Positions 3,483 to 62,900 of a stretch of 64,000 nucleotides of DNA are shown piece after piece. Position 1 is the stretch's first letter, and every line of letters begins with the position of its first letter. Under the pieces are notes generated by a model. That model was not told the origin of the DNA. It saw only the letters and a program-made list of their open reading frames with translations, and did not search any database. Position numbers and translations under genes: made by a program. The DNA is taken from assembly GCA_905178155.1 (NCBI GenBank), contig CAJINV010000016.1, forward strand, positions 644,259 to 708,258, in the 5' to 3' direction. Source of the stretch: Amoebophrya sp. A120 (taxonomy: Eukaryota > Protista > Dinoflagellata).

Positions 3483-3626
3483 CGGGTAGTGCCGTGCGGC
3501 GCTCGTCGGGCGAGAAAGACGGTGGGGGAGCTGTTGGTGTTTTAGGGTTTTGGAGTTTCATCGGGAAAAGAACTTGTTTTCGTGGAATCAACCTAAGCCG
3601 CGCGTGAAACCAGGGCAAAGTCTTGA

Positions 3627-11686: not shown

Positions 11687-14600
11687 ATGGTGCGTTATTT
11701 TCGTCGTTCACTCCTCGTCCTCGCAGTGTGCTATCCGACGTCCGTGGTTTCCGCTGCGAAAACAGCAGCAGACGAGGATGATTCGCCTTCTCCGGCACCG
11801 TCCGTCTATCCCAACCCAGACCCGCCGCTGTTCCTCAACTTCGACTGCTCCCGGCTCCGGAACGGCACGGCGACCAGCATGGAGGGCCTGGGGTCCCTCT
11901 TCCGGGAGGTCCGCGGTACCCGGGTGTTCGCGAATCTACTTGGGCTAGAACCGCTGGAAACCGTACCCGCGGCGGGCCACGGCGGGGACTGGGAAGCGAG
12001 CCGGGCCTACTTTGGGAGTCTGATCAAGAAAGAGAACAAGGAACTGCTGAAAGACGCGCTGCGGAATTCGACTTCTCTCCACATCTACGACGATTTGCGC
12101 AGAATCTTCGCGCAGCTCCGAACCAGTGGGTATAAGGCGCAGAAAACGGTGGGGAAATTCACGATTTTCTCCAACGCAATCCGGCCGGACGAAGTAGAGC
12201 AACTGATTGAATGGCTCGGCGGCAGCACGTACGGACAAGCGCACAACAAATTTCTGCCGCAGTGCTCGACGAAGGAACTACCCACAACGCCAAAGAAGAA
12301 AAAATCATCAGCTGATCATGCGAAAGCTCCAGAAACAAAGCACCCGTCGGAACTGTGTCGTGAAAAGGTTCTCCGCGCGTCCCGCATGGAGCGGTTGCTT
12401 CCCCGGATCCAAGAACTCCGTATCAAATGTAAAAATGTCTGGGTCTGGAAACTTGTGATGCTGGGTGGCGCATCATGATGAGGCTCCAAATGCTGGCTCA
12501 GCATGACAAGTTTCTGAGCTCCTCGGTGTTGCCTATTCCGCATGACAAACTGCGCTTCTGCATCACAGAAAAACGAAGCTCTTGGGAAACGTGCATGACA
12601 GATTTAACAGTCATGCCAGACAAGCATGACAAACATGAATTCTTCCCGACCCAGACATTTTTACATTTGATACTCCGCGAAGCGGCGCGAAAATCCGGCA
12701 ACGTCGGCATTCTCAACCTCGTCAGCGACCGGTGCCCGGCGCTCATGTGGAACGGCGCGGCGCCGCCGGAAGTGGACGAAGAGTTGCGGGTAGCGGTGCA
12801 CCGCGCGCGGAAGAAGGAGAAGAAAATCATCGAGGCAAAGTCTTCGATCAAACGGGGCAAACTCCGCTTCTCCATCGCGATTCACATCCGGATGGGCGAT
12901 TTGCTGCAGAATGTGCTGTCCTGGACGGGGAAGAAACAACGCGAAGCGGTGACTGTGGTATGCAATTTGCAAGAGTATCGTGCTACGACGTAGGGATTGC
13001 ATGACAATGAATTTTCTTTTCAGAATCCAGAATGGAATGAGTCGTGCGGAATCAGGACAGCGAAAGCACATCTGTCATGCGTGGCCGCAGTTCGTACGCC
13101 TAGTACGATGCTCTTTTGCACTGCATACGCAAGTACGGATAACAAGAGTAAGCCACTGACCGTGACGACGGAGGACGTTTTCGAGACGCTGGAACGAAGC
13201 AAAATGATCTATCCACACCAAATTTATTTCTTCCGAACACACAAATGCGGACCAAGCATGACAAAGGTTCATTCTCGATGCTATTCAGCATGACAAATGC
13301 TCGAGTTTGGGATAATCCTTTTTATGCATTGTTGCACGTGCTGTAAGTAGGAGGGAACAACAAGTTTGTATTGCATATCCTCGACGAGGACACCATGACT
13401 CGCATGAAGAAGACGCACTTCCTATCCTATTTAAAAACGTCCCCACCCCATAGTTGTAATGCAAATCTGCATGCTGAAAATGTTTCTCATGCGGAGCCCC
13501 ATGATCTGGTAACCAAATGCGTGCGCGCGCGCGCGCAGAGCGCGCGCCGGCCCACGAAGCCGGCGCGCGCGCTCTGCGCGCCTGCGATATTGCTTTAGCA
13601 AACGCAGCGCGAAGGCAGTTGCCGTTACCATATAGGGCAACCGCCGGGAGGCGTGAAGGTCAGGGAAATGGCCAGAAATGAAGCGGGAGAAAGGAAAAAA
13701 AGCGGACCAGATGGGAAAATGGCCAGGAGGTCAAAAATGTCGCAATAACGGCAGAAACCAAGCGGGAGAAGGTGAAAAAAGAGCACTTTTGCGGTCTGGC
13801 CCACTTCGTATCTGAAAAAGAGACGGACTATTTTTTGCTCCGCCCGCTGGCCAGCTGCGTTGGAGAAGCAGGCCCGCGACCTGTTCGGAAGCCTTGGGTC
13901 GCTTCGTAACTGGAAAAAGTTGGAAAAAAATGGCAAAAAATTGCTTCATAACGTGGGTGGAAGCAATCGTCGGACTTTGTGCAAATCACCCGGGCCACTT
14001 GGAAAATGGGAAAAGATGAAAAATTGCGCAAAAGCGCAATCCCTTCGCAGGCTTCAAAACTGCCACCCAGGTGCGGGCGGCGAAAATGTCCAGGCCGCCC
14101 GGGCCACTTGGAAACCAGAAAAAGATGAAAAATTGCGCGAAAGCGCAATCCCTCCGCAGGCTTCAAAACTGCCAGTCAGCTGCGGTCGGTGAAAATGTCC
14201 AGGTCGCCCGGGCCACTTGAAAACCAGAAAAAGAAAAAAAAATGCGCAAAAACGCAATCCCTCCGCAGGCTTCAAAACTGCGAGGCAGCTGCGGTCGGTG
14301 AAAATGTCCGGAGCCCTTCGGCCACATAGAAACTTGAAAAAAAAGGAAAAATTGGCAAAAGTTGAGAACCCCCGGCAGGCTTACAAACTGGCCACCAAGG
14401 GCGGTCCGGCGGGCGCGCGCTTGCGCCATACCATCGCGATTGGGGAAAAAAAAATGCATTAGAAGCGGGCGGAGGCATGTCCCAAAATCCACGCTTGCTC
14501 TGGGTTGTGGGCACCAATTCGGGACCTCCGCCGCGTCTGAAATGCCCGACTTTGGTGGCCCAGCAGGGTCCGCGGGTTTGTGGTTTCGCACATACCTTCC

Positions 14601-16385
14601 TGGCCAGGGGGCCAGTTTGTCATGCAGGGGGCTAGAAAGGATGCCCCGCTGCGAAATAGCAGACCGGATCTCGCCTGCAATGCTTATCGCAGGAGCCTGC
14701 GGGCCGCCGCGGGCTCCACCACTTCCCCGCGGCCCTTCTGGCCAGGGGGCCAGTTTCTCACGCAGGGGGCTTGGAGAAGAAGTAGTGGGACTGTAATCAA
14801 AAACAAATAGCGCCAAAGCGCGGCCCGCAGGGCCGCGTTTTCGCCGCGCGGCTGGTTAGGCTTTCGCGCTGGTTAGATTTTCGCGCACGCATTTGGTTAC
14901 CAATATCGCCCTCCGGGCGCGACCTTCATTAGCATTTTCTAATCGTGTTTTGCAATTTGTCATGCTCCAATCAGCATGGTATGCTAGATCTGTGATGCTG
15001 CTGAGCTAGCTCAAACAGCACTACACTACGAATGCAAATTTGTCATGTAAAACAGCCAAAACTTGTGGATTTGTCTAGCCGATTCCCCATCTTGACTATG
15101 GTGTGGGGACGTTTTTACTCAGGATACTTCCTCGACAAGTGTGCCATCCGGCACATCCTAGTCGCGTCGCACGGACGGGAAAGCGAGAAGTGCCAGAAGA
15201 AGGCGGCGGAGCGGCGGCACGCCCCGTTTCTCAAATACCCGGTCGCGTATTTTCAAAAAGTGTTGAAAAGTCTGTTCCAAGACGTCCCGGTGCTGTCGAT
15301 TGGGCTGATGGAGAAGACCGTCGACATTCACATTTTCTCGGACGCGCCCGAAGAGTGGTTCCAGTCGTTCAAAGCGGCGTACTATCAAATGCAAAAATGT
15401 CTGGGTCTGGAAGAATAACTTGTGATGCGCATTTCAGAACATAGAAAAATCTCTAATGCATAGGCAGCAAAAATTGCCCACTTTCTGTCACCAAAGTGGG
15501 GGGCTTGTCATGCGGATTCGGCATTGCGGAAGCTTCTCGAAACCTGTGATGGTAGAGCTTCCATGCCAGATCTTCTGCGTCATGCAAAAACAGCATGAGT
15601 CTTCCAGACCCAGACACTTTCACATTTGATACGTACGGCGCGGAGGTGGTTACTGTGCACGGGGACGGAGACGGGAAGTCGTTGTTGATCGGAGAGGAAG
15701 TAGCGGTTGACGGGGAAAATGAGGGTGATCAGGACGAGAGCACGAAGATCCAAAAAACGAAAACTCTCCCGGCGGACTTGGACCATTTAATTTTTTCCGA
15801 CATTCTGATTTACGGTGAGGGCAACCTCGGCCGGCTCGCCGCGTTTCTGAACCCGGACGGGATCAAGTTGCAGGCACCGTGCGGGCGGACCGGAAACGTG
15901 GAGGGGGATATGGTGGTGAACGTGCAAAAGAACGGGGAAATTCCCGAGGGGGAAAAAATCAACGACAAGTTCTCGGTCATGCTGAAGAACAAGATGGGCA
16001 GTAGCGGTGTCACGATGAATCAGCGAGGTAAGGTATCCTGTGCGAAAACGTCCCCACCCCATAGTTGTAATGCAAATCTGCATGCTCAAAATGTTTCTCA
16101 TGCCGAGCCCCATCATGACATACATTTTCTAGTCGTGTTTCGAGATTTGTGATGCTCCAACTAGTATGCTATGCTAGATCTGTGATGCTTCTGAACTAGC
16201 TAGACAGGATTACCGTACGAGGCCAAACTTGTCATGCGCAACACCCAAAGCTTGTCGATTTGTCTAGCAGATTTCCCATCTTGACTAAGGGGTGGGGACG
16301 TTTTTGCTCAGGATATAAGGGACAGGTGCCCCGCCGGGGAAAGGAGACGATTATGCGCCCGGAGAAGATCAAAACGGAGTTGTGA
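11687..16385 (+). CDS. Putative secretory/ER fucosyltransferase-like GT-B protein (GT11/GT23/O-FucT-type motifs) with C-terminal KTEL
   Basis: Signal-peptide-like N-terminus (SLLVLAVCYPTSVVSA); motifs SIAIHIRMGD, IHIFSDAPEE and DLDHLIFSDILIYGEGNLGRLAAFL; removing the last introner gives ...PEKIKTEL-stop. Confidence 0.7.
12421..12672. mobile_element. Introner, family A
   Basis: TIR TATCAAATGTAAAAATGTCTGGGTC; DR CTCCG; joins IQEL|REAAR. Confidence 0.93.
12959..13127. mobile_element. Degenerate introner (G-like)
   Basis: TATGCA...TGCATA ends; DR decayed (TGTGG/CGCAA); removing element plus 5 nt keeps the frame. Confidence 0.65.
13210..13377. mobile_element. Degenerate introner
   Basis: TATCCA...TGCATA ends; DR TGATC/TCCTC; internal GCATGACAA motifs; frame kept. 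Confidence 0.6.
13505..14930 (+). mobile_element. Nested non-autonomous element with asymmetric inverted repeats, 3' hairpin and internal 109-bp tandem repeats
   Basis: 21-bp IR TGGTAACCAAATGCGTGCGCG (13507-13527 / 14882-14902), then hairpin CGCCC-TCC-GGGCG and a short tail; host introner sequence resumes at AGCATTTTCT. Confidence 0.78.
13985..14390. repeat. About 4 copies of a 109-bp tandem repeat
   Basis: CCCGGGCCACTTG...CGCAGGCTTCAAAACTG recurs at about 13989, 14098, 14207 and 14316. Confidence 0.88.
15383..15631. mobile_element. Introner, family A
   Basis: Family A TIR; DR CGTAC; joins KAAY|GAEV. Confidence 0.92.
16034..16315. mobile_element. Introner, family B
   Basis: Family B TIR; DR TAAGG (allows a canonical GT-AG reading). 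Confidence 0.92.
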
Positions 16386-23173: not shown

Positions 23174-26100
23174 ATGGGGACGCTGCAAGAGCACGTGCGA
23201 AATTGTACTGGCGGAGGTCAACACCACCACCACCACCATCGCAAAAGGCAGCTACGAGGGAAGGTCGGCTCTTTGTTACCAGGGAGAGCTAGTACCAGCG
23301 ACGTCTTGGTCTACTCGAGGACGAAATTAGCTCTACTACTAGTCGCGGCCTTTGCAGCTGCGGCGCTTGTGCTACTGCGAGGCAGCTTTTCTTTGTTCGC
23401 GTTTCTCGGCTTCGGACCGCCCCCTCCACAATATCCGCGAAAAAACGCCTCGTCGACCTTCTTCTTCGCCGACGCCAAGCGGCTTCGGCTCGGGCGGCGG
23501 GCACGGGGTTCAACATACTATTCAAAACCGGGAAAGACAGGTGGACCTGACCCCTTTTTCAACTTTCTGGCGGACGCACAGATGCGCACCCTGCTGGAGG
23601 AGGACGGCAAATTACCTCCGCGCCGTATCCTGGGTGTAAAATAAACGTAGCTGCCGTTTCCCCAGTCTTGATGTCATGCAAATCTGCATTAGTATGGTAT
23701 CCAGAAGGTGTCTCATACGCAGTCCCATGACCACAAGCATTTTCTAATGCTGTTTGCCTTTATTTGTCTTTGTCATTCTCTAATCAGGATTTAATTCGTA
23801 TTGCGGCCACGCTGGCCAAGCCCCACTCTAGTGCTCGGGAAAGCCGAACTTTGTCATGCCAAAGCCCTAAAGCTGCTTCATTTGTGTCCTGCAGATTGTT
23901 TTGTACCTCGTAAGAGTACTTCTTTATTACACAGGATACGCGCGTCACCAAGTGGGTGCGTCGAGCAGACCAGCGATGCGCGTTTGAAGAAGATGCTAGA
24001 TGAGAAGGACAAGTGGCGCAACAGTATGCCTGAGGGCTTCTGGACGGTCGACGCGCGGCAGGTGGACGGCATCAAGATCGGATATGGATGTGTCAGAGTT
24101 GAAATCGACAAAGTTGAAATAATTTGTCATGCATAAAACGGATACCAGTTATGCCTACAGTTTGTAGTCGATGCATGACAAATCTTCCCGGTCCTGGAAG
24201 CGTGTCTGTCATGCGGTTTAGGGCAAAAGACCTGCCTTCTGTCATGCTAGTCAGAAGTCCAACTTTTGACCCTTACCAGGACCATAATCTGCCTCCCGTG
24301 CGTCCTCTCCAATAGAGTCACTTTTTGTGTCGCATTTTATGCATGACAAATCATTTCAACTTTGACGATTTCAATCCTGACAGTTCCACATCGGACTGGA
24401 AGCGGAGGTCCGCGCGACCACAAAGTCGCGCAAGCTGAAGCTGAGTTCGGTGACCATTCCCACCTGCGCGTTTGCCACCCCCACGAAGCTGTACTGCCTG
24501 GCGCAGGTGGATGTGAAGCGCTCGACCAACTACGCCAAGAATGTGGATTTCGTGCGGTCTTTGTATCTGATCGAGTACAACGACCGGTGTGGGCCTTTTT
24601 TGACCGGTAATCCTAGGGATGCCGCGAAGGGCAGGCCGGGTGATAAACCGCTCACTTCTTTCACGAGCGGCGACGAGAAAGTGCAGCATTTTGGGCGCAA
24701 CGCGCCGCTGGGGCGGAGCGGGAAAATCCTTGGGGGGTCCGACACTTCGGAGGATCCTCTTTCGCGCGGTGGAGAAAACCCGGACTCGCTGGGCCCGACC
24801 GGTGCGGCCGGTCCGGACGGCGCCAAGTGGATTTTTGACTGCGCAAAGATGACCGAGTTCCGCTTTTCCTCCATCCAGCGGAGCCCCGGGGAGCCTATGC
24901 ACAGGAAACAAATAGGTTTTTGTGTCTGGAAAGGTGTTGTTGTCATGCTAAATCCTAAACCCCAAACAGATTTTACAGTAGTTAGCAGTGCATGAACAGT
25001 TTTTGGAAAGGGAATCCTGTGTTTTGCATGGGACGGAGCGCATTTTTGTAAGAAGTACATACAAGCGACACGACCCTTTCGCCACATGCATCCCAACCCT
25101 CTACGGCCGTGTCAACAGCAGGCAGGCACTACAAAATCTCGAATCCTCCAGATGAACACCAGACCACATACTTGCAAATTTCATATCCCCGGAGGGTGTG
25201 CGCTTCGAAAACAAGGGTTCCTTCCGGTGCGAATCGTGGGGCGAGGTGATCCGGGCGTGCGCCCACTGCAACACACTGTTTCGCCGGATGACCTTCCGCA
25301 CCGCGAACATGCCGACTTTTACGGGCAGCTTGATTACCGGATTGCATTACAACACGCTTCCGCGCTTGGCCCCCGCGCGGTCGGAGGACGGCCGGTTTTT
25401 GCTCGCGTGGCTCCCCCGCGAGCGGTCCCTGATCGGGTGGCAGTCCACCCGCGGGTGGAAACTGATCTGGAAAACGCGGCCGATATCCCGTGTAAAAACG
25501 TGTTTATCCCAGAGTTGTCATGCAGATTTGCAATGACAAAAACATTTGTGATGCGCGTCCCCATGACAGGCATTTTTATTTCCAATCGTGTCTTGGAATT
25601 TGTAATGCTGTAAACAGGATAGGCAGCTGGATTTGTAATGCTGGCGTCCTTGCTAACCTGCACTACGCTACGGACTGCAACTTGTCATGCGTGACTCCCA
25701 AAACTTCTAGGTTTGTGGTGCAAAATCCCCACTATCTTGCCTCGGGGGTGGGGACGTTTTTGCTCAGGATAGCCGAGTGAGAAGATTCAGATCGTGCGCA
25801 TGAGTCTGGTCGGTTCCAAAAAGGAGATGGTGTGGCTTGTGTCTTTGTACATCAACAATTCTCCGCACATTCTCCACTTCGAACCCTACGTGTGGCTGAC
25901 GGAACATTGGGACCGGTTTTTGGACCTGGAGTGCATCAACTTTCCCTCGGAGTACCTGCAGCAGAGCCAGGGCGCCGCCGCTGCCTCGGGAGGTGGTGGT
26001 GCAGGTGGTAACGCCGCGGGAATAAACGGCGGTAGTAGCAGTGGCTACAGGCTGAGCGGGAGCAAGTATTGGGAGCGTTTTGGCGAGTATTACGAGTGCG

Positions 26101-29100
26101 CGAAGAGCTCGCACGCGGTCACGGACTTCAAGGATTTCCTGCGACAGCAGTCTGTATGGATTGCAAAAATGTCTGGGTCTGGAAGGATGCGAACTTGTCA
26201 TGCGTGTTGCGGATCATACAAAAATCTGTGTTGCATGACTTGCAAAAGGTCGCCATTTCTGGCCATGCTGAGAGGGCATTTCTCATGCAGAAAAGGCATC
26301 ACCAAGGGGCTGCAGAACCTGTGATGCTATCCCCTGCATTCCAGCCTTGGTGGAGCTTGGAAAAACTGCATGACAAATCTCGGAATCTTCCCGACCCAGA
26401 CATATTTGCATTCCATAGTCTGCGTTTGCTAACAAGCGCCGCATCGAGGCGCACAACTTCAAGCGTATGTAGTGCAAAACTAGTACAACTATCGTACTCA
26501 TTGCATGACGACCGATCATCTGGTTTTTCTAAATGCTATTACGAACGACACACAAGAAGGTCCATTCTTCCTCTCGGAAAAAAAATGTGAATAACTTTAT
26601 GCCACGTACATCTAGTAGTACGAAAGCTTTTGGTTTTTTCAGATGCATAAGGCCCGTGTTGCTGCAGAACGCGTGCCAGCAGCTGCAGCGGGCGTACGAC
26701 TGCCAGTTGGAGCGGCCGTGCAGTTTCTTCAAGGATCCGAGGCTGCTGAAGGCCCCCCCGAAAGTGATGGACCCCGAGTTTCGGTTTGCGGAGTCTATGC
26801 CGTCTATGTCCATTCTGAAGCCGAAAGAGGAACTGGCAAGCCCGCGACGAGGCGGTGGAGCTCGTGCCCGAACCACGACGGCGATGTTGCCCCCCCAGAT
26901 GACGGGAGCGCAGACCGGAATAAGTGGAGGACCACCTCCACCTGCAGCGCAAATAGAAACACCACCTGCAGCGCAACAGGAAAATAATGGGGCGAACGTC
27001 AACGGCGCTGTGGACGCGTCTCTTCCCGACGCGGGAGATGCTGGTGACCTATCAATTACAAATATGTCTGGGTCTGGAAAGCTGCAAGATTTGTCATGCA
27101 TCTCGGGGACCACGACGCACATGGTGTGCAATGCACACGAAAGCATCAGAGATTGTGCGAGACCTACCCCATGCCTATCCCGTATGAGAAATCCGCGTTT
27201 TGTCCAGCAAGAAGTGTGCAACTTTTGGTCTTTATGCTATACAGATTTCTTTGTGCTTGAGACTTTATATTTGCAATGCATACGACCAGCAGACGAGCGA
27301 GCTACAGATGGAACAGGAAGGCTTCGAGGAAGCGAATGAAGTGGGGAAAAAGTCGTGGTCACAAAAGGAAGTCAATCGCGCGACGGAAGGGGCCGCGCCT
27401 GATAAAGTAGGTGCAAACGTCGAAAATGATCGTGCCCCGTCGATAGCAGGAGAAGCTTCGGGTGGTCCAACTGTTACACCGTCTGCTATACACGACAATG
27501 AAGACGAGGAATTTGTGGAAGAGCTGACGGATTTGCTGAGGGAGTTTGAGAAACACCAGCGTCCTCCGGTCGTAGGGAACACGAACGGTGAGCAGGGTCG
27601 TACAGAAGCTGCAGCTGGCTCTTCATTTATCCAAGACAGCTACTTCGCTGCGCCCGACGAGCTGCCCCAATCGACTTCCGCCGCGGCGCATATGGAAGCG
27701 TCAGGACCGAAATCAACAAAATCGAAATAACTTGTGATGCAAACAATCGATACCAGTCGGAGCCTGAGTTTCGAAGTGGTGCATGACAAATTTCGGGATC
27801 ACCATAATCCAGTCTGTCATGCTGTTTGGGCAAAGAAGACCACTCCTGTCATGCTACTCGGGCAGCGCATCACTTTCCCCTAAACAGGCTCACAATCGGC
27901 CTCATTTGCCTGCTCCCCAACACAGGCCATACGTGCCCTACATTTTATGCATTACAAGTTTTTCGATTCTGTCGATCTCGATCCTGACATTCCCATAGCG
28001 CAGTTTCGTGAGTGCATGGAGGCCTCGCAGGAGCTGCACTGCAACTTCCAGTATCAAATGCAAAAATGTCTGGGTCTGGAAGATTGGAACACTTGTCATG
28101 CACATTTTGCATGAACGATTATGACTGTACTGCATGACCTAGCATCAGAGATTTTACGAGGGCTTCCTGATGCCTATACCGCATGAGGAATACCCCCTCG
28201 GCGTAGCATAAACTGGACTCCTCTTGCGCCCTCAGCAATACAAATTTTTTTTGAGTCCAAAGACAGCATGACAAGTTCCATCCTCCCAGACTCAGACACT
28301 TTTGCATTTGATATCCAGTCCTTGCTGCCCAACATTCAAATCCGCGACGTGGAATTGCTCCGCCCGAAGAGCCACAACCGCTATCTGGAGCACAAAAAGG
28401 ACTTCTTCAAGAAGTACCAAATGCGGAAGCTGCAGGTGCAAACCTCTGCCGGTCCGAACAAAGGAGCTTCATCCAGTGGGGCGGATGACTTCGAGCACGG
28501 CCACGGCCGCAGGGACGCGGACGGTGCGGAACTCGATGATCCGACGGAAGATAGCCGCAATAAGGAAACCGACATCCGTCAGGCCTCCGTGCATCCGTCC
28601 CGGATCGATACGAGCTGTACGTTATCAAATGCAAATATGTATGGGTCTGGAAAGATGCGCGGTTTGTCATGCTTGGCTAACATGGCGGGTATGGTGGGGG
28701 CGAGAGGCATGTATGAGTTTTGCGATGTATTGGCAGAAATACATCGCAAAACTCATACATCATACATGGAAGATTTGCGGAGAGCGCGACGGTTTCCGTG
28801 TACGATGTACAATGTATGAGGTGCAATACATCAATGTGCAACCCAATCTCATACATCGTACATCATACATTGTACACGGTCCAGTGTATGATGTGCGATG
28901 TCTGATACATTGTGCATTGATGTATCATACATTGTACATCAATGCACGATGTATGACATTGATGTATCGTACATCGTACATTGATGTATCGTACATCGTG
29001 CATTGATGTATCATACATCGTACATTGATGCACTGTACATGATACACGGCACAAACATTGATGTACTGTACATGATACATGGTACATTGTACATTGTACA

Positions 29101-32100
29101 CTGGCTGCAAGTCGGGGCCGCAGATGCGGCTCCGCTCGGACCAACCGGACTTTGCAACTGCAAGTCGGACCAGCAGATGCGGAGGCGCCGGGGCCCGGCG
29201 CCTCCGCGCGGACCATCAACTGGACTTATTTGCAGCTGCAAGTCGGACCGGCAGTTGGGGAGGCGCCGGGGCCCGGCGCCTCCGCTCGGACCAGCCGGGC
29301 CTTGCCGCTGCAAGTCGGGTCAGAGGATGGGAAGGCGCCGGGGCCCGGCGCCTCCGCTCGCACCAGCCAAGCTTTGCCGCTGCAAGTCGGGCCGGCAGAT
29401 GGGGAGGCGCCGGGGCCCGGCGCCTCCGCTCGGACCAACCGGACTTTGCAGCCGCAAGTCGGACCGGCAGATGGGGAGCGAGGCGCCGGGGCCCGGCGCC
29501 TCCGCTCAGACCAACCGCGCTCTGCAGCCGCAAATCGGACCGGCAGATGGGGAGGCGCCGGGGCCCGGCGCCTCCGCTCGGACCAACCGCGCTCTGCAGC
29601 TCCAAGTCGGGCCGGGAGATGCGCACCCGGCGCCTCCACTCGGACCAGCCGGGCTTTGCGGTTGCAAGTCGGAGCGGCAGATGGGAAGGCGCCGGGGCCC
29701 GGCGCCTCCGCTCGGACCGCCCGGGCTTTGCTGCTGCAAGTCGGGGCCGCAGATGCGGCTCCAACCGGACTTTGCAGCGGCATGTCGGACCCGCAGCTAC
29801 GGAGGCGCCGGGGCCCGGCGCCTCCGCTCGGACCAACCGGACTTATTTGCAGCTGCAAGTCGGACCGGCAGATGGGAGGCGCCGGGGCCCGGCGCCTCCG
29901 CTCGCACCAACCAAGCTTTGCAGCTGCAAGTCGGACCGGCAGATGGGGAGCTCGGACCAGCCGGGCCTTGCAGCTGCAAGTCGGACCGGCAGATGGGGAG
30001 GCGCCGGCGCAGCTGCGCCGGCAGAGGAAGTGCCGGTGCTGGTGCTCTGAGTGGTGCCAGCAGATTCACCGGCCGGCGCAGCTGCGCTGGCAGGAAGATC
30101 AGCTGCTGAGCTCGGAGCTCCAGCATCAAACAGCTGCTTCGCTTGCCAACGCAGCTGCGCTGGCAGAGCAAGTGCTGGCGCTGGAGCTCTGAGTGGGGCC
30201 AGCAGATCCAGGGAAGTCAGCTGCTGAGCTCGGAACTCCATCCTCACACAGCTGTTTCGCCTGCCGGCGCAGCTGCGCCGGCAGACGAAGCACTGATGCC
30301 GGAGCTCTAAGTGGGGCTAGCTAGCAGATCCACCTGCCGGCGCAGCTGTGCCGGCAGGGAGGTCAGCTGCTGAGCTCGAAACTCCAGCATCAAACAGCTT
30401 TTTCGCCTGCCGGCGCAGCTGCGCCGGCAGAGGAAGTGCTGGTGCTGGAGCTCAGAGTGGTGCCTGGCGCAGCTGCGCTGGCAGGAAGATCAGCTGCGGA
30501 GCTCGGAGCTCCAGCATCAAACAGCTGCTTCGCCTGCCGGCGCAGCTGCGCCGGCAGAGAAAGGACTGGCGCTGACGCTCTAAGCGGGGCCCGCAAACCC
30601 ACCTGCCGGCGCAGCTCGCTGCGCCAACAGGGAGACGAGTAGCTGCTGGGCTCGGAACTCCAGCCTCATTCAGCTGGCCATGTATGATGTGCCATGTATG
30701 ATGTATCATGTATCATGTGCCATGCATGATGTGCCGTGTATGATGTGCCATGTATGATGTGCCATGTATGATGTGCCATGTATGATGTACCATGTATGAC
30801 GTACCATGTACCGCGCACCGGGTACGCTGTGCCATGTATGATGTATGATGTATGATGTACGAGGTACATACATCGCAGAATTTGCGATGTATGATGTACA
30901 ATGTATGATGTACAATGTATGATGTACAATGTATGATGTACAATGTACAATGTATGATGTACAATGTATGATGTACAATGTATGATGTACAATGTATGAT
31001 GCACAATGTATGATGCACAATGTATGATGTACAATGTATGATGTGCAATGTATGATGTGCAATGTATGAGAGTGAGGTCGTTCTCCGCAAATCTTCCATG
31101 TATGATGTATGAGTTTTGCGATGTATTTCTGCCAATACATCGCAAAACTCATACATGCCTCTCGCCCCCACCATATTGAACATGGCTCTGGGGTCTGTCA
31201 TGCACGTTGCCCAACAGCCCCAATGCTCTGTGATGCAGAAGCTCACTTTGTCATGCAGAATATACAACACTGAGGCAGCTCTAAAACTTGTCATGGTTGG
31301 CGGCCAATTGAGGCGTCCTCGTCCTCTTTCTCGACCAGCATCACAAGTTTCCAGACATCCAGGAGGGATATTTGGCGCACTGCATAAACGTTTCTCAAGG
31401 GTGGCGAGCTCGTAAACGGGTACGACGACGCCGTCGAGAGCAAGGATACGAACAAGCGCCGGGCGGTGGTGCCCTGCGTGGGGGTGGGGCTCACGGCCCG
31501 GCTGGAGACCTTCTCCGAGGAAGATATGTTCCCCGACGGCTTGGTCAGGTTCGTGAAGGTATAATGGAAAATGAACATGTGCCTATCTATGTAGTAAAAA
31601 GATGAATATTAACAACAAAAAAATGTGGCCACGTTTCAGTTTGAATATGGGTTTGCATGTAGCTGCACGAAGACCAGCACATGAAAAAAAAGCTGCAAAA
31701 TAAATGCTTTGTGCTTCTCGTGTGTGGAGGTCTGGGTTGCAAAAAACTTCCTGCTGATGTTGAAAAAGGTTGGCCTCTTCTTCGGCTGCGGGTGGATACT
31801 ACAGTGAAAAATGCCCCCACCCCTGAACTTGCGAGCATTGGTATTGCAAACCCTTCCAATGGAAACATTCCCCGTCTTGCATATATCAGCATCACAGATT
31901 TTCCATGCTGAATAGCTCAAATACAAATTTGTGGCGCAGAGGAGCCCAACAGCAGGCGGATCTGTTATGTGAGAGATACCTTGCGCGCTTAGATTCTGCA
32001 TCAGAAAGGACTCGCAGTCCTTTCATGCAAGACAAAAAGCTTCCATTCGGAAACTTTGCATGAGAAATTCCGGGGTGGTGGCGTTTTTCATTGTAATAGT

Positions 32101-41100: not shown

Positions 41101-43862
41101 GGCCTAAATTGCAGGCAGTCTGTCATGCTGTTTCCCACTTCCAGTTGCCTCCTGTCATCCTGGAGCTGCAAGGCTTTCCCACGCTAGGCAGCACTACAGT
41201 CCGCATCTTTTGCCTTCCAGCATCACAAAGCTGATTCGTGACCACAAATCTGCATCACAGATTTCCGTTTTGATATGGGGACGGGGCATTTTTCATTGTA
41301 ATATCGTGGACCAGGCATCCTGGGCCAAAGATAAGTTCGCGAAAACGTTGCAGCGCTACGTCCGCTATGCTGAGTAAAAACCTCCACCGCCCCCTCGCCT
41401 GCCAGTACATAAACGCCCCAGAGTTCTTGTCATGCAAATCTGCATGCCAAAAAAGTTTCTCATGTGGAGCCCCATGAGAAGCATTTTCTAGTCGTGTTTT
41501 GGAGTTTGTGATGCTAGAATCAGCATGATATGCTAGTAGACCTGTGACGCTGCTGAACTAGCGAAACAGGGTCAACACACTACGAGGGCAAATTTGTCAT
41601 GCGAAACAGCGAAAGCTGGTTGATTTGTCTAGCAGATTTCCCAGCATCTTGACTCTGGTCGTGTGGGCACATTTTTACTCAGGATATCCGCGACTTCAAT
41701 TTCGTCGGCAACACGGAGGCGGAGCCGGCCACGGCACTCGGACTGCACGCGGCAGCCATTTACGCCCGTTGGAACGGCGAAAACCCCGACGCCCCGCTGG
41801 CCGACACGCCCTTCGACGCAAGGGCGCAGCTTCTCCGCGGGTCAAAACCAGAGCTGAGTGTGGAGAGGCTGCTCGCGAATTCTGGCGCGAAGGAGTTTCT
41901 GGAAGCGGGGAGCCTGTGCGCCCTTCATATCAAATGCAAATATGTCTGGGTCTTGAAGCATGCATGTTTGTCATGCTTGTCTGGCATGACACTCAAATCT
42001 GTCATGCACGTATACCCAAGAGCGCCACTTTTCTGTCATGCAGAAACGCAGTTTGTCATGCACAATGGGCAACGGAACACCTAGAAGGTCAGAAACTTGT
42101 CATGCTGAGCCAGCACTTGTGGCCTCCTCATGATACGCCGCCCAGCATCACAATTTTCCAGACCCAGACATATTTGCAATGTATACTTCACATCGGGGAA
42201 CTCAAGGAGCTTTTTGCCTCGGACTTGAAGTGTCAGCGGATTGAAAAGCAGCTGTTATCTATCGAACAAAAAAAGTTCATCGGGCCGATCACTCATGCGC
42301 ATTTTTGCAATAGTACAAAACTTTCTGTCAACATGCGTGAAAATGCATCACAGCCAAATTTCAACATAAGGGAGTTGCCCAGTGTTCCTGCAATACAAGG
42401 AAAAGCTGCGATGGTAAAAAAAAGTGTAATGCAAGACCTGCAAGTTTTTACTGACTGTGACAAACTTTTTTCTCTCCATATTATCTACGGGTAGTACTAG
42501 AGGTCGGGCAACTGGCGAACAGCAAAACGCTGGACCACGACTGGCTCAACAGCAGCACACGGAAAACTATGTAACCGATGTGCTGCGGGCGCGCATCATT
42601 TTCGTTTCCCCCATATCTCACAGAAAAAAGTAGGCAGAGATGGGCGTATAATCTGTAACTCATCAAAAATAGATCGATACTTACACAAGGCGTAATCTGC
42701 GAAACAGCACGTTCTGGGCGGCTCGCCCATGGCAGATTATTTTTCTGTTAATTTACTTTGACTTTCGCATTACAGATTTGCTTTTGCCCTGCCGGTCCTT
42801 TTCTGTGGGATGCCTGACCGCACTGCTGGTATTTTTCTGGTACATGGTCTACGGGCAGGAGGAGCTAGTCGTTGTGGGCATACATAACAAGTTTCAGGAA
42901 ACCGAGGACAGTATCAACTGCAAATATGTAGTTTAGCCGTGGTCAGTCTGTCTGGAAGAACTTTGTATACGGTGATATTACTTGCTGCCAGAGCGACCGC
43001 TTGCACAACGGGATGACAGGATCAGAAGTTATTTTGCATTGATTCGCAATCGACGTACTAAAGGGCATGACAAACCATTGCCACGCAGCACGAAAAAAAG
43101 GTAGTCACTCGTCCTATCCCTGGCGTGCATCACAGATCTTGTTCTCCTTCACATTTCGCATCACGAATCCAGATGATGATGAAGTAAACATGTTTGCAAT
43201 GCATAGACAGCAACGAAACCCCGGCCTCTGCGGCGGACAGCAGTGGGCAGCAGCAAGCGATCACCATCCCCGATTTATCCTGAGTAAAAACATGATCCCC
43301 GTCCCATAGTTGTCATGCAGAATTGCCAACAGGAACGTTTGTAATGTGCATCTTCATGATAGGCATTTCAAAGCGTGTTTTGGTATTTGTAATGCTGCGA
43401 ACAGGATAAGCAGATGGATTTGTGATGCGGCTGCTCGCACTAACCTGCACTACACTACAACAGAGAGAAGCTTGGCATGCGTGATGCCATCCCCGCAGTA
43501 GCAGAGTCTGTTTATGTCATGCGTGATTCCCAAAGCTTCTGGATTTGTATTGCGAACGTCTCAGAAGCTTGACTATGGGTTGGGTACGTTTTCACATAGG
43601 ATGCGACTTGGTGCTGCAGGTGCAGTTCGTGATGCCAAATTTCGGGACGGCCGAGAACCTCGAGTTTGTGGCGGAAATCAGCCTCCGCCTCGAAGCCTAC
43701 GCCCTGACGCGGGATATCGACTACGTGTTCCAAAAAATCCAGCGGGCAACGTCCATCACCAGCTTTTTGGAGCCCCTGTTTCCGGATTTCGATGCTTCGG
43801 TCTTGGAAAAGGTCAAGCAGGTTCGACGGGACGGTGGCCGGACCGGGCGGCGCGAGGCGTGA
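23174..43862 (+). CDS. Very long uncharacterised multi-exon gene (possibly two adjacent genes) with hydrophobic segments
   Basis: An open plus-strand frame can be followed across about 31 introners and several GT-AG introns; hydrophobic stretches near 23330-23410 and 38410-38600; no family recognised; junctions at about 32.8-33.1, 38.6-39.1 and 42.3-43.2 kb not resolved. Confidence 0.55.
23626..23938. mobile_element. Degenerate introner, family B
   Basis: TATCCTG...CAGGATA; DR CGCCG/CGCGC; frame kept. Confidence 0.75.
24083..24390. mobile_element. Introner, family E
   Basis: TIR core TGTCAG..TTGAAATCG.CAAAGTTGAAAT; DR TCGGA. Confidence 0.88.
24896..25185. mobile_element. Degenerate introner
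   Basis: TATG...CATA ends; DR GAGCC/TCCCC; removing element plus 5 nt joins PGEP|EGVRF. Confidence 0.65.
25484..25771. mobile_element. Introner, family B
   Basis: Family B TIR; DR GCCGA. Confidence 0.9.
26155..26417. mobile_element. Introner, family A
   Basis: Family A TIR; DR GTCTG. Confidence 0.92.
27050..27282. mobile_element. Introner, family A (right TIR decayed)
   Basis: DR TGACC/CGACC. Confidence 0.82.
27691..27997. mobile_element. Introner, family E
   Basis: TATGG...GTCAGGA / TCCTGAC...CCATA; DR GCGCA. Confidence 0.87.
28052..28313. mobile_element. Introner, family A
   Basis: Family A TIR; DR TCCAG. Confidence 0.92.
28800..29100. repeat. Degenerate 7/14-bp simple repeat (TACATCG/TACATTG/TGATGTA)
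   Basis: Directly visible, subterminal to the left TIR. Confidence 0.85.
29100..30670. repeat. GC-rich tandem arrays: a ~65-bp unit with hairpin GGAGGCGCCGG-GGC-CCGGCGCCTCC, then a longer unit with the palindrome GCCGGCGCAGCTGCGCCGGC
   Basis: Directly visible; explains the repetitive overlapping ORFs in many frames. Confidence 0.92.
30680..31070. repeat. 14-bp tandem repeat ATGTATGATGTACA / ATGTATGATGTGCC
   Basis: Directly visible, subterminal to the right TIR. Confidence 0.92.
31797..32098. mobile_element. Introner, family D
   Basis: TIR TAYTACARTGAAAAAYGCC.CCACCCC; DR GTGGA. Confidence 0.9.
32449..32736. mobile_element. Introner, family A-like (diverged)
   Basis: TATCAAATGCA...TGCAATGCATA; DR GGGCG/GGTCG. 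Confidence 0.8.
33173..33462. mobile_element. Degenerate introner, family B
   Basis: DR GCACG/GCGCG; family B internal sequence. Confidence 0.75.
33507..33655. mobile_element. Introner, family G
   Basis: Long IR TGCAAAA.TATCGTACTCGTATAAATGCA; DR GTTTG. Confidence 0.9.
33694..33955. mobile_element. Introner, family A
   Basis: Near-perfect family A TIR but DR mismatched (GTACG/CTCGG); removing element plus 5 nt joins SRY|GQTN. Confidence 0.88.
34032..34316. mobile_element. Introner, family B
   Basis: Family B TIR; DR AAACC. Confidence 0.88.
34481..34759. mobile_element. Introner, family B
   Basis: Family B TIR; DR TGCTG; closely similar to 34032-34316. Confidence 0.92.
34850..35161. mobile_element. 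Introner, family C
   Basis: TIR core GAAAAATCCCCCCTCCCC; DR GGTGA/GGCGG. Confidence 0.87.
35209..35417. mobile_element. Introner, family F
   Basis: IR AAAAAAACTGTTTCACTGT; DR CACGA. Confidence 0.9.
35459..35720. mobile_element. Introner, family A
   Basis: Family A TIR; DR CACCG. Confidence 0.93.
35770..36022. mobile_element. Introner, family A
   Basis: Family A TIR; DR GCTTC. Confidence 0.93.
36471..36759. mobile_element. Introner, family E
   Basis: TIR core GTCAGGATT.AAATC..CAAAGTTG; DR TGGCA; joins RTWQ|LWLK. Confidence 0.9.
37265..37528. mobile_element. Introner, family A
   Basis: Family A TIR; DR CGCCG. Confidence 0.92.
37782..38065. mobile_element. Degenerate introner, F-like
   Basis: AAGAAAAACG...TTACACTTA / TAAGTGTAA...CGTTTTTCTT; DR GGTGG/GTTCG. 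Confidence 0.72.
39140..39401. mobile_element. Introner, family A
   Basis: Family A TIR; DR CCGTC. Confidence 0.92.
39488..39740. mobile_element. Introner, family A
   Basis: Family A TIR; DR GAGAT; joins QQEI|SRLQ. Confidence 0.92.
40249..40552. mobile_element. Introner, family D
   Basis: Family D TIR; DR GCAAA. Confidence 0.92.
40588..40921. mobile_element. Introner, family C
   Basis: Family C TIR; DR decayed (GGAGC/GTCTC); removing element plus 5 nt joins SELE|RRGLG. Confidence 0.85.
40983..41303. mobile_element. Introner, C/D intermediate
   Basis: TGAAAAA.GCCCC..CCCCATATC IR; DR TCGTG. Confidence 0.88.
41366..41686. mobile_element. Introner, family B
   Basis: TAT.CTGAGTAAAAA IR; DR TCCGC. 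Confidence 0.87.
41928..42185. mobile_element. Introner, family A
   Basis: Family A TIR; DR CTTCA; joins CALH|IGELK. Confidence 0.92.
43276..43603. mobile_element. Introner, family B (diverged)
   Basis: DR CGATT/CGACT; family B internal sequence. Confidence 0.8.
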
Positions 43863-56977: not shown

Positions 56978-59900
56978 ATGGATGTCACGCTGGAGAATTT
57001 CGATCAGCTCTTGCCGGTCATCGAGCAAGAAATCGAGGCTGCGGACTATATCAGCATCGATTTGGAGATGACGGGAATCCGCAACCCGAGTGAAAAACCG
57101 AGCTATTTTCTGGACTTGCCCAACATTTTGTACAAGAAGAATCGGGAGATCGTGAACGCCTTTGACATCATGCAGATCGGGATCTGTTGCGTGAAAAAGC
57201 AGAAACATGATACGGCAACCGGTCGTACTTCAGGTGGAAGTCCATCAAGCAAAAATTCCCGTGACAACTCACCTTCGTACAAGCTCACGCCCTTCAACTT
57301 TTATGTGTTAAAACGATCCATAGACCGGATCCAGAAGACCCTGGTGACGTTGGACACGGAAACGCTGATGTTTCACACGGAAAACAAGTTCGACTTCCAA
57401 AAGTGGCTGCAGTTTGGGATCGGGTTTTGCGACTCCAAAATCGAGGAAATGCTGATGGCGCAGTTCCGGCAGGAGGCGGCGTCGTTCCAGAGCATGAGCG
57501 AGGCGCTGGCGGGGTTATCCAAAGATGCAAAGAATAATGAATATCGACGCAATTTGACGTTATTATTGACGGACCTGCTCTTGTAAGTACATGCTTTATT
57601 CCAGGATCTTCCCACTTTGCAACTAGAGCTAGACCACACAAATTATTTCGGTCTGTCTGTCGTGCAGCGAAGATATAACTCAGCATGCAAAACCGCACAA
57701 GAAGAAATAGTTTTCTCACGAATAAGTAAGTGGGTGTGTCTGCTCGTCACGTATGCAGATGTTCTCGTCTTTATGCGATATTGATAGGGGGTTTTTCGAA
57801 AATTCCATATGCTACAGCCCAGAACAACAAGAAGCAAGACTTTAACGTCGGTGGCGGAATCACGTTGGAACGGAAGGATGACCGCGACTGGTTCGAAAAT
57901 CTGTGGACCAGCGAGATCAAGCCTTTCTTCGACAAGGAGAACAGCAAGACCAACCTATCAAATGTAAAAATGTCTGGGTCTGGAAGAATGCAACTTGTCA
58001 TGCTAAATCTGAAGAATGCAAAAATCTGTGTTGCATGATTACCAAAAGTCGTCCAATTCTGACCAAGTCGGGAGGGAGTTTCTCATGCAGGATAGGCATG
58101 AGAGAGATCGCACAGAATCTGTCATGCTAGGTCCTGCATTCCAAACCTCAGGGGTCATGGAAAAGCTGCATGACAAATCGCGCATTCTTCCAGACCCAGA
58201 CACTTTTGCATCTGATACAACCCGGAGGAAAACAAGTTCAAGCTGCCCAACATGAACGCGTTTTATCCTGAGTAAAAACGTCCCCAGAGTCAACCTGGGG
58301 ATTTTGCAACACAAACCTAGAAGTTTTGGGACTCACGCAACACAAGTTGCAGTCCGTAGTGTAGTGCAGGTTAGCAACGACAAACGCATCACAAATCCAT
58401 CTGCTTATCCTGGTTACAGCATTACAAATCGCAAAACATGACTAGAAACGCCTCTCATGGACGAGATGCGCAATACAAATGTTCCTGTCATTGCAAATCT
58501 GCATCACAACTCTGGGGTTGTAGGGACGGTTTTACAAATGATACGTTTCGCGCCAAGTTTATCCGCCAGCAACTGGCGCGGCAGTATCCGGACTCCTACG
58601 TCGACTCCTACACCGATTCGCAAGCGCAGTATGCGTATCAAATGCAAATATCGATCTGGGTCTGGAAGGATGCGAGGTTTGTCATGCGCATTTTGCATGG
58701 CCCCTAATGTCCTCTGTGATGCATTCCCTAGCATCACAGATTTTGTGATGGCTTTCTGATGCCTAGACTGCATGAGAAATGCCCTCTCGCCGTCGCAAAA
58801 ACTGGACCTCTTTTGCTGTTCGTGCAACACAGAGTTTTGTAGAATCCAGATGCAGCTGCATCACAAGTTGCATCCGTCCAGACCCAGATCGATATTTGTA
58901 ATGCATAACGCGCAAACGCAGAGGGTAGTGTACCGATCCGTCACCTTGCAGGAGAAGGAGAAGCTGGAAAAGGAGAAGACGGACCGGGAAGTGCGGAAAT
59001 TCGAAGAGCGGAAAAAATCTATCACACAGAAAATGTTGAAAATGATTGAGAAGTTTGTGCTAGTCCGTTTTGGAATACTATTTGATTATTCCTCGCTCTC
59101 GAATTTCAATTTTGTTTTGGTGCGCCGCTACGGCGCACCAACTTTGTTGCGGCGCAACGACCTTTCTGGTGCCTATCAGATGCCCGGCGCAAGAACTGTG
59201 TCCGGCGCTTATCTCTCTGTCCGGCGCCCAGTGTCTAGCGCCTATTTATTTATGTCCTGCGTCTGTTTTTCATTTTCTGGCGCCTCGCTTCCGGCCGCCT
59301 TATTTTCCTAGCGCCAGCCTTTTTAGTGTCCGGCCTCTTTTTCTCTAGCCATGTGCGGCGCCTTTTGTCCTCGCGCCTCCTTTGTTGGCCTCGCCTGGCG
59401 CTCGTTTGTCCGGCCCCTTTTTAATACCTGGCTGGCCATCCAATGCCCGGCGCCTTTTTTCTTCTGGCGCCTCTATCATCCTAGGCCGCCAGTTTTCATG
59501 TTCGGTGATGAGAGCACCGCGCAGAACCGATTGGTTTGTCGGATCGTCGGGGTTTTTCCCTATACCTGTTTTATACAATTTTTCTTTTGGAGGTCACTAG
59601 CACTGGCCTAAAAGTAAAATTCGAGATTTCAAGAAGTAGACAAAAGGGGCGGGCGAGCAAAAATTATATAAGCCTTTTCATCGCAAGAGTTCCATATCCC
59701 ACCTCCGCGCGCGCGTCGGGTTCCGGCACATTTGGTCAAAAATCAAGCTGAATGGCTGCCCGGTGATACTCCACAATGGGTTTTTCGACTTGCTTTTCCT
59801 GTTTCACAACCTCGAAACCCCGTTGCCCACTATCAAGTGCAAAAATGTCTGGGTCTGGAAGAGTGTAGGCTTGTCATGCAGATTTTCCATGACCCATGAG

Positions 59901-62900
59901 GTCTGGAATGCGGGACTTAGCATGACAGACTCTGCGAGGGCTCTGCCATGCTTATTCTGCATGAGAAACTCCCTTCCAACTTGGTCAAAAGTGGACAGCT
60001 TTTGGCACTCATGCAACACAGATTTTTGCATGCTTCAGATTTACCATGACAGGTTGCAATCTTCCACACCCAGACATTTTTGCAGTTCATACCCACCGAC
60101 CTGAAGCACTTCCGGCGCGAGTTTGTGAAGCGGGTTCCGCTATGCATTGCAAATAAGTCTGGGTCTGGAAAGTTGTGATGCTAATGATCGCATGATGCGC
60201 GGCAACCTGTATTACGTGGCTGCGCATGACAAGTTTCTGAGCGGCCATGTCTAGCGTTAATCGCATGAGAAATCATCGCCTTTTTGCATGACAAACAAGT
60301 CACGCTGTAGCACAACAAGCATGACAGACTTTTCTGTCTTGTCGGCCAAGCATGACAAACTTACTTGCACTCTTCCACACCCAGACATGTTTGCAAATGA
60401 TACCCGAACCCGATTTTGGACACCAAAATCCCGTCCGACGTCTATTACAGTGAAAAGTGCCCCCCACCCCCAAAGTTGCAAAAATTTGTGATGCGAAGTT
60501 TCCAAATGAAACCTTTTTGTCATGCATGAAAGGAACATGAATCTTTCTGATGCAGATTCTAGTGTTGTTTCGCATCGCTTGCATGACAAGCACCGCTCTT
60601 GCTGGGATCTTTTGCAATACAAATTTTTGCTATTCACGATTGGAAAGCTGTGATGCTGATACATGCAAGAGGGCCAATGTTTCATTTGGAAAGGTTTGCA
60701 ATACAAATGCTTTCAAGTTCGGGGGTGGGGGCATTTTTCATTGTAATAACGTCGACCTGAAATTGAAGTACGGCGAGCAGGAACTGCCGTTTAGCTCCTT
60801 GGAGGAGGTCCACAACCTGTTGACGAAGTTCCACCCGGAGTTTATCGGAAAAAGGTTCAGCGTGGTGAAATCTCTGCAGGAGTTGCAGAAGCAGTACTTG
60901 TATCAAATGCAATGTCTACTTTGTGTGTCTACTTTGTCATGCATCTCATGGATAATTGCCTCGGTGGTCTGGAATGCACAGAGGAGCAATGTCACAGATT
61001 GCACAAGGGCTTCTTAATGCCTTGTACTCATGAAAAATTCGCGTTCTTTTGCGTAAGCAAGAAGTGGGCAGGTTTTGGCGTAGTTCCTGCAACGCAGATG
61101 TTTTTGCATTGGATCCAGACTCGGCATGAGAAGTTGCACAATCTTTCCAGACGCAGACACATTTGCAATGCATAGCTTGGAACTGAACGGCAACACCGCC
61201 GAAACCGCAGGAGCGGGGGAAAAGCTTGTGGCTGCGGATCCAATACTTCCCGAGGACGAGAAATACCACGATGCCGGCTTCGACGCCTTGCAAACGGCGA
61301 AGGTGTTTCTCGGCCTGACCACGCAGGAAAAATTTACCTGCGAGCCGAATGTGTTGCCCTTGTCTGGGCGACACCTTTTCCGGGTTCTGTTGCAGCAGGA
61401 CAGCGTCACGAGCAATGGGTCCGCAAGATTTGCTGCAGAATCGTCTGAGCTTCATCATAGCGCAGGGCTGGAGCCGCCGGTGCAGCGGCTGATCCCAGAT
61501 CCGAGTGTGGAGGAGAGGAACAATATCAAAAGGAAAAATCCCCCCTCCCCATATCGAAATAGAAATCTGTGATGCGGGATTTGTGTACACAAATCGGCTT
61601 TGTCTTGCAGTAGAGGACTGCAGGCAGATACAGAGCGGCAGGAGGGGCGTTGTGGTATAGCCGCCTAACAAGGCAGGCATATCCTCCGCAGGCCGTGCAG
61701 CATTACAAATTGCCTGCGGAACGCGGCCAGGTTTTGGGATTTGCCTTCTTGCAAGACAGAGACGATTTGTGGTCTCAAATCAGCATCATAAATTTTCGGG
61801 AGTATTCCACTTTGGTATGGGGAGGAAGGATTTTTCTTCACGATAAACAAGGGGGACAAGAAAAACAAAAGAATTTCCCATGTGAAAGTGTTTTATGCAA
61901 CATGGAGAAAAGACTTTCTCTCTAGCATTATCGTATACAGCTACAACATGAAGTGAGGCTGGTGGCGATTTTTTGCATTCTCTACTAGTACCACTGGGAA
62001 TTATGAAATTTGTGTCTGTCGATGTTGTATGTAGAGCTGTGGACCAAGAAAATTAGAGTGCGATGACGCAGTTTCTTTTCGCAAGTTGTACATGTTCCTA
62101 CGGTTATCGGTAGTCTTTTCCCGCTCGATACTTCTGCCAACATCACGAACGTTGGGCTTACTCAGGGCGCAATGAGTGGCAACAACCAGGCGAACTCGCA
62201 GTCCCAGCACCAACAATCGTCCAACTCGCTCGCCCGGCTGGATTTCAACGCGATGCAAACCGTTCTCGGGAAGGTCCTCGGGATGGAGGAGAATAAATCG
62301 CTGCAAGCGAGTAATTTCACCCTCCAGCACTTTCGCTTTCTGCACGAGGGAACCGCACTTGCCGTGATTGAGGAGGACGTGTATGATGGTGGTCTTCATG
62401 CTGCCGGAACGTCAGACAAAGGGACCACTACAACGACAACAAAGGCCAGCACGTCGACAGCAGGGACAAGCTATCAAATCGGCACCCTGCTAGACAAGCT
62501 GCAGCATGCGTTCAAAACGGAGAAGAACTTTCACTTCAACGTCTGCGAGCTGCCGGAATACGAGGACGCCATTGAGTCTTCGTTATGAGAAGTAGAGCAC
62601 ACAAGAGTTATTGATTTCCTCCCGTCCTACTTGTTTGGAGGGCCTGAGCAGCAACAGTCTCTGCATGGAAAATCGAGCTTCTGTATGGAGTGTAGTACTG
62701 TTTAGATGAATGGTGCATAGAATGATGCAGTACTACTTGTGACACAGGCATTAGCGAGAGTTGGGGTTCTTTTGCATGGCAAATGATTGGCATTAGGTGT
62801 GTTTTTGTGCTCTTCCATATTCCTTTGTCTCCGTCTCCAAGGATCACGCTTCCTCGACGAAAAATTCGGGCACGAGTGGAGCAGGAGGGAACACCAAGCC

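Follow-up and report, generated by a model that had tools for sequence, protein, structure and literature searches.

In a 64,000-nucleotide (nt) stretch of the genome of the dinoflagellate Amoebophrya sp. A120 (contig CAJINV010000016.1; hereafter the window, whose own positions are used throughout), dozens of elements of 150-330 nt with inverted ends and 5-nt flanking repeats are sited within reading frames. These elements are introns, and our data support the view that they are lost from RNA at one fixed register, with one further base removed ahead of the 5′ TAY and four beyond the 3′ AYR of the element, regardless of whether the flanking repeat has survived. The first intron base (+1) and the last two intron bases are free. 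The boundary can be written N-TAY...AYR-NNNN, and with moderate confidence we attribute removal to a relaxed U2-type spliceosome.

One exon query of the window had a single match, NCBI protein P0001, named Amoebophrya sp. A120, at 100% identity; a second exon query also returned one match, A120 protein P0002, at 95% (the query ran into an intron). Both proteins align residue for residue to the window exons. The arms of the elements read TAT, then seven loose bases, then AAA. Since this end profile matches the A120 introner signature of PMC7789003, the system is already published: the elements are the introner introns of A120 reported by Farhat et al. 2021 (PMC7789003). Here and below, statements on published work refer to the parts of each source that were available. 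In PMC7789003, about 65% of A120 introns are without GT-AG ends, and their removal is an open question. The intron class is thus known; our contribution is that its splicing rule becomes sharper in a real and useful way, on the basis of one 64-kb window, one RNA sample and two annotated proteins.

We define the register as the number of the five junction bases (0-5) that come from the upstream repeat copy. Out of 73 elements counted in the window, 49 have a perfect repeat and 24 a mismatched one, with 10, 8, 13, 11 and 7 mismatches at repeat positions 1 to 5. Fourteen of the 24 mismatched sites were informative, seven through RNA contigs and seven through annotated proteins; two were uninformative, seven gave no register reading and one failed (at the protein level, 58636 and 62584 were uninformative). 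Register 4, i.e., four upstream bases followed by one downstream base, fits 14 of 14 informative sites and is the sole register common to all of them. With registers 0-5 equally probable, the chance of such agreement is ~8e-6, or 0.004 for the seven RNA sites alone. An earlier note on this DNA, made from the sequence, had proposed just such a 4+1 register independent of repeat identity, and at the 14 sites positions 1-4 were indeed free of downstream bases and position 5 of upstream bases. Of the seven position-5 mismatches, five were examined, and the downstream base was present in all five (the remaining two are 23626 and 26466). The G that had been predicted at 34850 was seen in RNA in four of four runs, and the A predicted at 60141 was seen in the annotated protein.

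The RNA evidence comes from four contig sets (X1-X4) of one sample from one study. No record labels any of these runs as RNA and their kind was guessed; we took them for RNA on the ground that both a canonical GT-AG intron and elements are skipped in their contigs. The alignment of RNA contigs left out 28800-31100, which holds tandem arrays, and 11600-28700, and hence sites 17941, 23626, 24896, 26466 and 27050; registers at 37782, 38604 and 43276 were read from pieces of a single X1 contig (record 1). The protein annotation rests on splice sites confirmed by transcripts (PMC7789003, methods), and it therefore serves as a proxy for complementary DNA rather than as reads.

Twelve elements lie wholly within 31300-36500, and 11 of them are skipped in RNA contigs as the element plus 5 nt. 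The same is true for all 18 introns of P0001 and P0002, with register 4 allowed in each. At 59020, where repeat identity is 0/5, only register 4 is allowed, which pins the register exactly. Elements whose 3′ arm ends in ATG (32835 and 43276) or ACA (33173) are likewise spliced as element plus 5 nt, and net removed length at 42614 is supported by RNA. At 34850 and 37782, a GT-AG pair that would remove an equal length at register 1 is unused in RNA. One X2 contig reveals an alternative acceptor at 32449: the donor is kept, and the intron is 9 nt shorter on its 3′ side, keeps the frame and stops four bases past an ATG, at a place that has no repeat. As background, ATA, ATG or ACA fill 4% of positions near 3′ ends.

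Reading frames point the same way. The diverged repeat pairs quoted in the earlier note were all present where it had placed them, and its claim that removal of an element plus 5 nt leaves an open frame held for each of the 14 mismatched elements of the long gene at 23174-43862 (a 2534-codon frame); its example at 33694 is not a single element with a diverged repeat, and the open frame there is coincidental. One or two bases more or fewer break the 2534-codon frame; one such variant near the gene end reaches 2580 codons, in another frame. At 28623, keeping the downstream copy throughout does yield a stop, and at 17941 the upstream copy gives, as had been said, a tyrosine (registers 3-5; registers 0-2 give cysteine).

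Sixty-six of the elements lie in plus-strand genes and seven in a minus-strand gene. Counted at register 4, the +1 base is near uniform (G22 C21 A19 T11; p = 0.25 versus uniform), all 16 terminal dinucleotides occur, in agreement with the freedom claimed earlier for both, and the first exon base is unconstrained as well (A22 C21 G20 T10). Positions +2 and +3 are TA in 73 of 73 elements, as proposed, and +4 is T in 71 and C in two, the 5′ arm starting with TAT or TAC accordingly. The other proposed constant, TA at −6/−5, is found in only 67 elements, with TG in four and CA in two; the 3′ arms end in ATA, ATG and ACA, respectively, and the motif is better given as AYR. The −5 base is A or G only, each able to pair with +2U. 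GT-AG ends at register 4, which the note had pointed out at two NNAGG repeats, are confirmed at 16034 and at 1621 on the minus strand and occur at these 2 of 73 sites only; the elements as a set do not have the GT/GC...AG ends of U2-type introns. Since the search was mostly TAT-seeded, claims of conservation lean on 45 introns for which RNA distances or annotated proteins give an anchor (TAT 43, TAC 2; ATA 40, ATG 4, ACA 1), in which the terminal triplets deviate at 7 of 270 positions versus 33 of 270 for the AAA in those arms (p = 2e-5). Insertion, with a 5-nt duplication, occurred in either orientation, and the commonest element family is split 8:8 between the two.

According to the mechanism that we favor, +2U, +3A and +4Y would be read as a 5′ splice site lacking GT, the paired arm ends would hold both splice sites together, and the 3′ site would be counted four bases from AYR instead of being located by an AG. 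The cut removes just as many bases as one repeat adds and so leaves each new insertion silent in mRNA, and such silence would explain the spread of the elements. In favor of a spliceosome, changes at the two outermost arm bases number 0 at the 5′ arm versus 6 at the 3′ arm (p = 0.03), although the commonest family is evenly split between orientations, and the terminal triplets deviate less than the AAA. Four of seven canonical introns examined in the window start with GTAT, and at this very register two elements qualify as ordinary GT-AG introns. A120 has 83 of 89 spliceosomal proteins together with U2, U4, U5 and U6, U1 small nuclear RNA (snRNA) being undetected (PMC7789003, section 10), and in Fritillaria the U2 spliceosome handles non-canonical introns (PMC13326754).

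Several observations weigh against this attribution. Spliceosomes of other eukaryotes depend on +1G and a terminal AG; here the +1 and terminal bases are free and the register-1 GT-AG pairs of 34850 and 37782 are ignored, which a separate machinery would fit equally well. For the +2 and −5 bases, predicted pairing is above 0.5 in no more than 42 of 69 elements, and several elements that are spliced have values close to 0. In the 45 anchored introns alone the asymmetry between the arms is 0 versus 5 and not significant (p = 0.06). As to the register itself, all RNA evidence consists of assembled contigs of the one sample, so that minor registers would be invisible; the protein evidence is published annotation; and two raw-read runs (X8 and X9) gave two matching reads each, the organism not being in them.

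The same register could also be produced by a spliceosome-independent nuclease and ligase that would measure from the closing pairs of the hairpin, one base on the 5′ side and four on the 3′ side, a possibility that we consider less likely. It would account for the free +1 and terminal bases and the neglect of available GT-AG pairs, for a −5 base that can always pair with +2U, and for the alternative acceptor of 32449, which has a stem of its own with 10 of 12 positions paired. The net 3-base excess on the 3′ side resembles, by our own comparison, the Euglena signature N3CDG...CHG-N5-6 (PMC12501133); removal of a nuclease/ligase type has been proposed for euglenid nonconventional introns, and the failure to detect U1 snRNA in A120 (PMC7789003) is also in keeping with it. 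On the other hand, end pairing is near 0 in the spliced elements 57516, 61894, 38858, 33173 and 32449, yet TAT and ATA are kept; the 5′ end of the elements matches canonical GTAT donors and two elements are plain GT-AG at the same register; and the enzyme is so far only hypothetical. In its boldest form, which appears to us rather doubtful, A120 would have a second mRNA splicing pathway, a ruler-like nuclease-ligase that acts on any TAY...AYR hairpin, overrides GT-AG, silences insertions with 5-nt duplications and has converged on euglenid geometry. Our data do not choose between the relaxed spliceosome and the structure-guided nuclease, both of which the earlier note had offered.

It is improbable that many mismatched repeats are joins of neighboring insertions, made by assembly collapse or recombination, and that independence from the repeat is therefore overstated. 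One such case does exist. At 33694, cited in the earlier note as a diverged repeat pair whose removal leaves an open frame, RNA contigs of X1, X2 and X3 keep both flanking pentamers with 308 nt between them that are absent from the window (X4 has no bridging contig). The arms of this apparent element are perfect (20/20) and yet its repeat has three mismatches, whereas other heavily mismatched sites have imperfect arms. The open frame is a coincidence of the 315-nt (105-codon) difference. Most likely, two insertions are fused here in the window, one contributing the left end and the other the right, and ~105 codons are probably absent from the assembly or strain at 33693-33956. The cause may be either assembly collapse or strain deletion; an exact 26-nt flank of 33694 had no match in metagenome contigs. 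Retention of the element in RNA was rejected, since the RNA piece stops at 33693, and a joint at 33534-33610, within an element, was set aside as derived from other family copies. A further gap upstream of 31388 is possible, as the first base of the transcript contig maps 766 nt before the first methionine. Against joins as the general explanation, distances in the RNA record between 36023 and 44000 equal the model at six checkpoints, at 32449, 33173, 34850 and 37782 direct joints leave out precisely the element plus 5 nt, and repeats are the more mismatched the less identical the arms are (Spearman −0.37, p = 0.001), as ageing predicts. Perfect arms with a mismatched repeat are thus a cheap assembly check, which revealed the missing 308-nt piece.

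Loss by repeat homology, or by template switching of reverse transcriptase across the hairpin, would make the junctions slide or turn them into library artefacts. Perfect repeats in 49 of 73 elements and strong hairpin folding speak for it, as does the legend of Fig. 3 in PMC7789003, according to which splice sites are variable relative to the hairpin. However, the same register is found at sites with 0/5 and 1/5 repeat identity and at the alternative acceptor without a repeat, the reading frames need the removal, and weakly folding elements are removed as well. We consider this explanation very unlikely and largely refuted, as the earlier note had argued. Excision from DNA, in the manner of ciliate internal eliminated sequences, which are TA-bounded and so resemble the TA...TA ends of the elements, is hardly credible, as contigs of DNA runs continue uninterrupted across eight elements (32449, 32835, 33173, 37782, 38604, 38858, 42614 and 42912; 15 of 673 joints viewed, a rare DNA form being possible), i.e., DNA retains them.

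The genes and introns on which the above is based are listed in Table 1.

Table 1. Host genes and introns of the window, with the evidence for each (protein, annotated protein; X1-X4, RNA contig sets).
Positions	Strand	Feature	Evidence or remark
1617..1862	-	intron in a minus-strand gene, GT-AG at register 4, CAAGG repeat	reading frame only
11687..16385	+	host gene, 614-aa protein P0001, no Pfam family	6 introns, all element+5
12958..13131	+	intron, element 12959-13127, TGTGG/CGCAA	register 3-4 only (protein)
13209..13381	+	intron, decayed element 13210-13377, TGATC/TCCTC	register 3-5 (protein)
16033..16319	+	intron, GT-AG at register 4, TAAGG repeat	protein P0001
17940..18229	+	intron in protein-kinase gene, GTACG/GTGCG	frame/codon comparison
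23174..43862	+	host gene, ~2,600 codons, 37 element introns (model) and 1 canonical	X1 record 1, 9160 nt
23625..23942	+	intron, CGCCG/CGCGC	frame only
24895..25189	+	intron, GAGCC/TCCCC	frame only
28622..31390	+	2.8-kb intron, internal 14-nt and ~72-nt tandem arrays, TACGT/AACGT	position 1 upstream in RNA (X1-X3)
32448..32740	+	intron, GGGCG/GGTCG	register 3-5 (X1, X3, X4); last intron base 32731 in X2
32834..33087	+	intron, 3′ arm ends ATG	spliced in X1, X3; also unspliced in X1, X2
33172..33466	+	intron, 3′ arm ends ACA, GCACG/GCGCG	register 3-5, 4/4 runs
33694..33955	+	apparent element, GTACG/CTCGG	likely two insertions joined; RNA +308 nt
34849..35165	+	intron AT..CG, GGTGA/GGCGG	register 3-4, 4/4 runs; register-1 GT-AG unused
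37781..38069	+	intron, GGTGG/GTTCG	register 4-5 (X1); register-1 GT-AG unused
38603..38773	+	intron, CTTTA/CTGTA	register 3-5 (X1)
40587..40925	+	intron, GGAGC/GTCTC	net element+5 fits RNA record distances
43275..43607	+	intron, 3′ arm ends ATG, CGATT/CGACT	register 4-5 (X1)
56978..63435	+	host gene, CAF1-family ribonuclease P0002, 904 aa	12 introns, each element+5
57515..57813	+	intron, decayed arms, GGGGT/TGCTA (1/5 alike)	register 3-4 (protein)
59019..59700	+	intron, decayed arms, no repeat left (AAATC/TCCCA, 0/5)	register 4 only (protein)
60140..60406	+	intron, TCCGC/CCCGA	register 4 or less; position 5 from downstream (protein)
60900..61178	+	intron, ACTTG/GCTTG	register 1 or more; position 1 from upstream (protein)
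61893..62134	+	intron, decayed arms, TGTTT/CTTCT	register 4-5 (protein)
62583..62823	+	intron, element 62584-62819, TTCGT/TTCCT	uninformative for register

For the long gene at 23174-43862, neither 458 candidates of 295-2000 amino acids nor the representative library yielded an annotated protein. Within it, the ATG-ended element at 32835-33083 is also seen unspliced, at a depth of 5.1 in X1 and 9.3 in X2; the interiors of five other elements have zero depth at 100% likeness. This gives a weak hint that G at −5 may slow removal. The protein-kinase gene at 17854-20966 mixes canonical and element introns and has three or four decayed introns toward its 3′ end, at ~20040-20600, that were left out of the counts; a candidate element at 20041 was dropped for want of an AYR end, with the gene's 3′ end unsettled there. 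Between 44900 and 54380 lies a long low-complexity coding region with six perfect-repeat elements, whose coding repeats look by eye presumably Pumilio-like.

The motif TGTSATGC, counted on both strands, has 160 copies in the elements (24.1 kb), none in the exons (13.4 kb) and two in canonical introns (1.0 kb), and may be a site for a transposase or a splicing factor. Four long introns (0.7-2.8 kb; 28623-31386, 13423-15126, 5854-6862 and 59020-59696) combine ordinary element ends with large internal cargo. A tandem array of ~26-28-nt units occupies 3600-4220, between two minus-strand reading frames.

A single positional rule turns the scattered end dinucleotides of these introns into one code, makes it possible to place slidable junctions by the tens of thousands, accounts for the harmlessness of the insertions, and predicts the exact position of lariat or circle junctions. 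It also bears on the question raised by PMC7789003, whose available text reports no clear signature for the removal of A120 introns without GT-AG ends.

Among known systems, IS3EU/GingerRoot DNA transposons (PMC10045372) share TA..TA termini with the A120 elements but usually make 6-bp duplications, in contrast to the 5 nt found here, so that the elements fall outside that group as described. No transposase was identified in the window, where no search aimed at one was made, and the kinship is only a lead. The introners of Polarella, Symbiodinium, Aureococcus and Micromonas (bioRxiv 10.1101/2020.10.14.339549, PMC11282704) are also elements with inverted repeats that duplicate their target site and act as introns once inserted. 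Their GT, GC or GA and their AG are supplied by the element or the duplication, often in more than one frame, whereas A120 elements do not need such dinucleotides and use one frame.

Introns of Fritillaria borealis (PMC13326754, PMC11282704) are likewise derived from miniature inverted-repeat transposable elements (MITEs) and mostly without GT-AG ends, in a genome that keeps the U2 spliceosome. Unlike the A120 elements, which have no preferred end dinucleotide, they prefer AG-AC and AG-AT, and they have been shown to be U2-dependent. Euglenid nonconventional introns (PMC12501133, PMC11282704) resemble the A120 elements in their non-GT-AG ends, their splice sites set at a constant spacing from a short motif (for A120, pairing of the ends is predicted above 0.5 in 42 of 69 elements), their frequent flanking repeats, the derivation of their rule from non-slidable introns and a proposed MITE origin. 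The geometry differs: euglenid introns have CDG/CHG at +4..+6, five or six bases after the motif and a purine as the first base of the exon, while A120 elements have TAY at +2..+4, AYR with four trailing bases and a free first exon base, and so do not conform to the euglenid pattern. Euglenid introns are released as circles; A120 elements are known from contigs only.

The closest comparison is with the A120 introners as published (PMC7789003), which share with the present elements the organism, the arm profile, a length of ~240-300 nt and 3-5-nt repeats overlapping the exon/intron boundary. Splicing from RNA with non-GT-AG ends and genomic repetition, by which these introners are defined, are both found here, in the RNA joints and in the element families. 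In the literature searched, a fixed register independent of the repeat was nowhere stated for A120; the search did not reach subscription papers and theses and included the available parts of PMC12130899, PMC11282704, PMC11453091, PMC12005148, PMC12787238, PMC12621601 and bioRxiv 10.1101/2020.10.14.339549. The nine commonest non-canonical A120 types in Table S4 of PMC7789003 are all NT-NN, so that the rule's 5′ half is supported across the genome and the rule is latent in published data (in A25 the common types are TT-NN); the same paper places the repeats four bases upstream, and its Fig. 3 and S19-S25 may already display part of the rule. Whereas the available text of that paper gives no clear splicing signature and describes sites as variable relative to the hairpin or unknown, in the window one register holds independently of repeat identity, with tolerance for AYR at the 3′ end and with out-of-register GT-AG pairs ignored.

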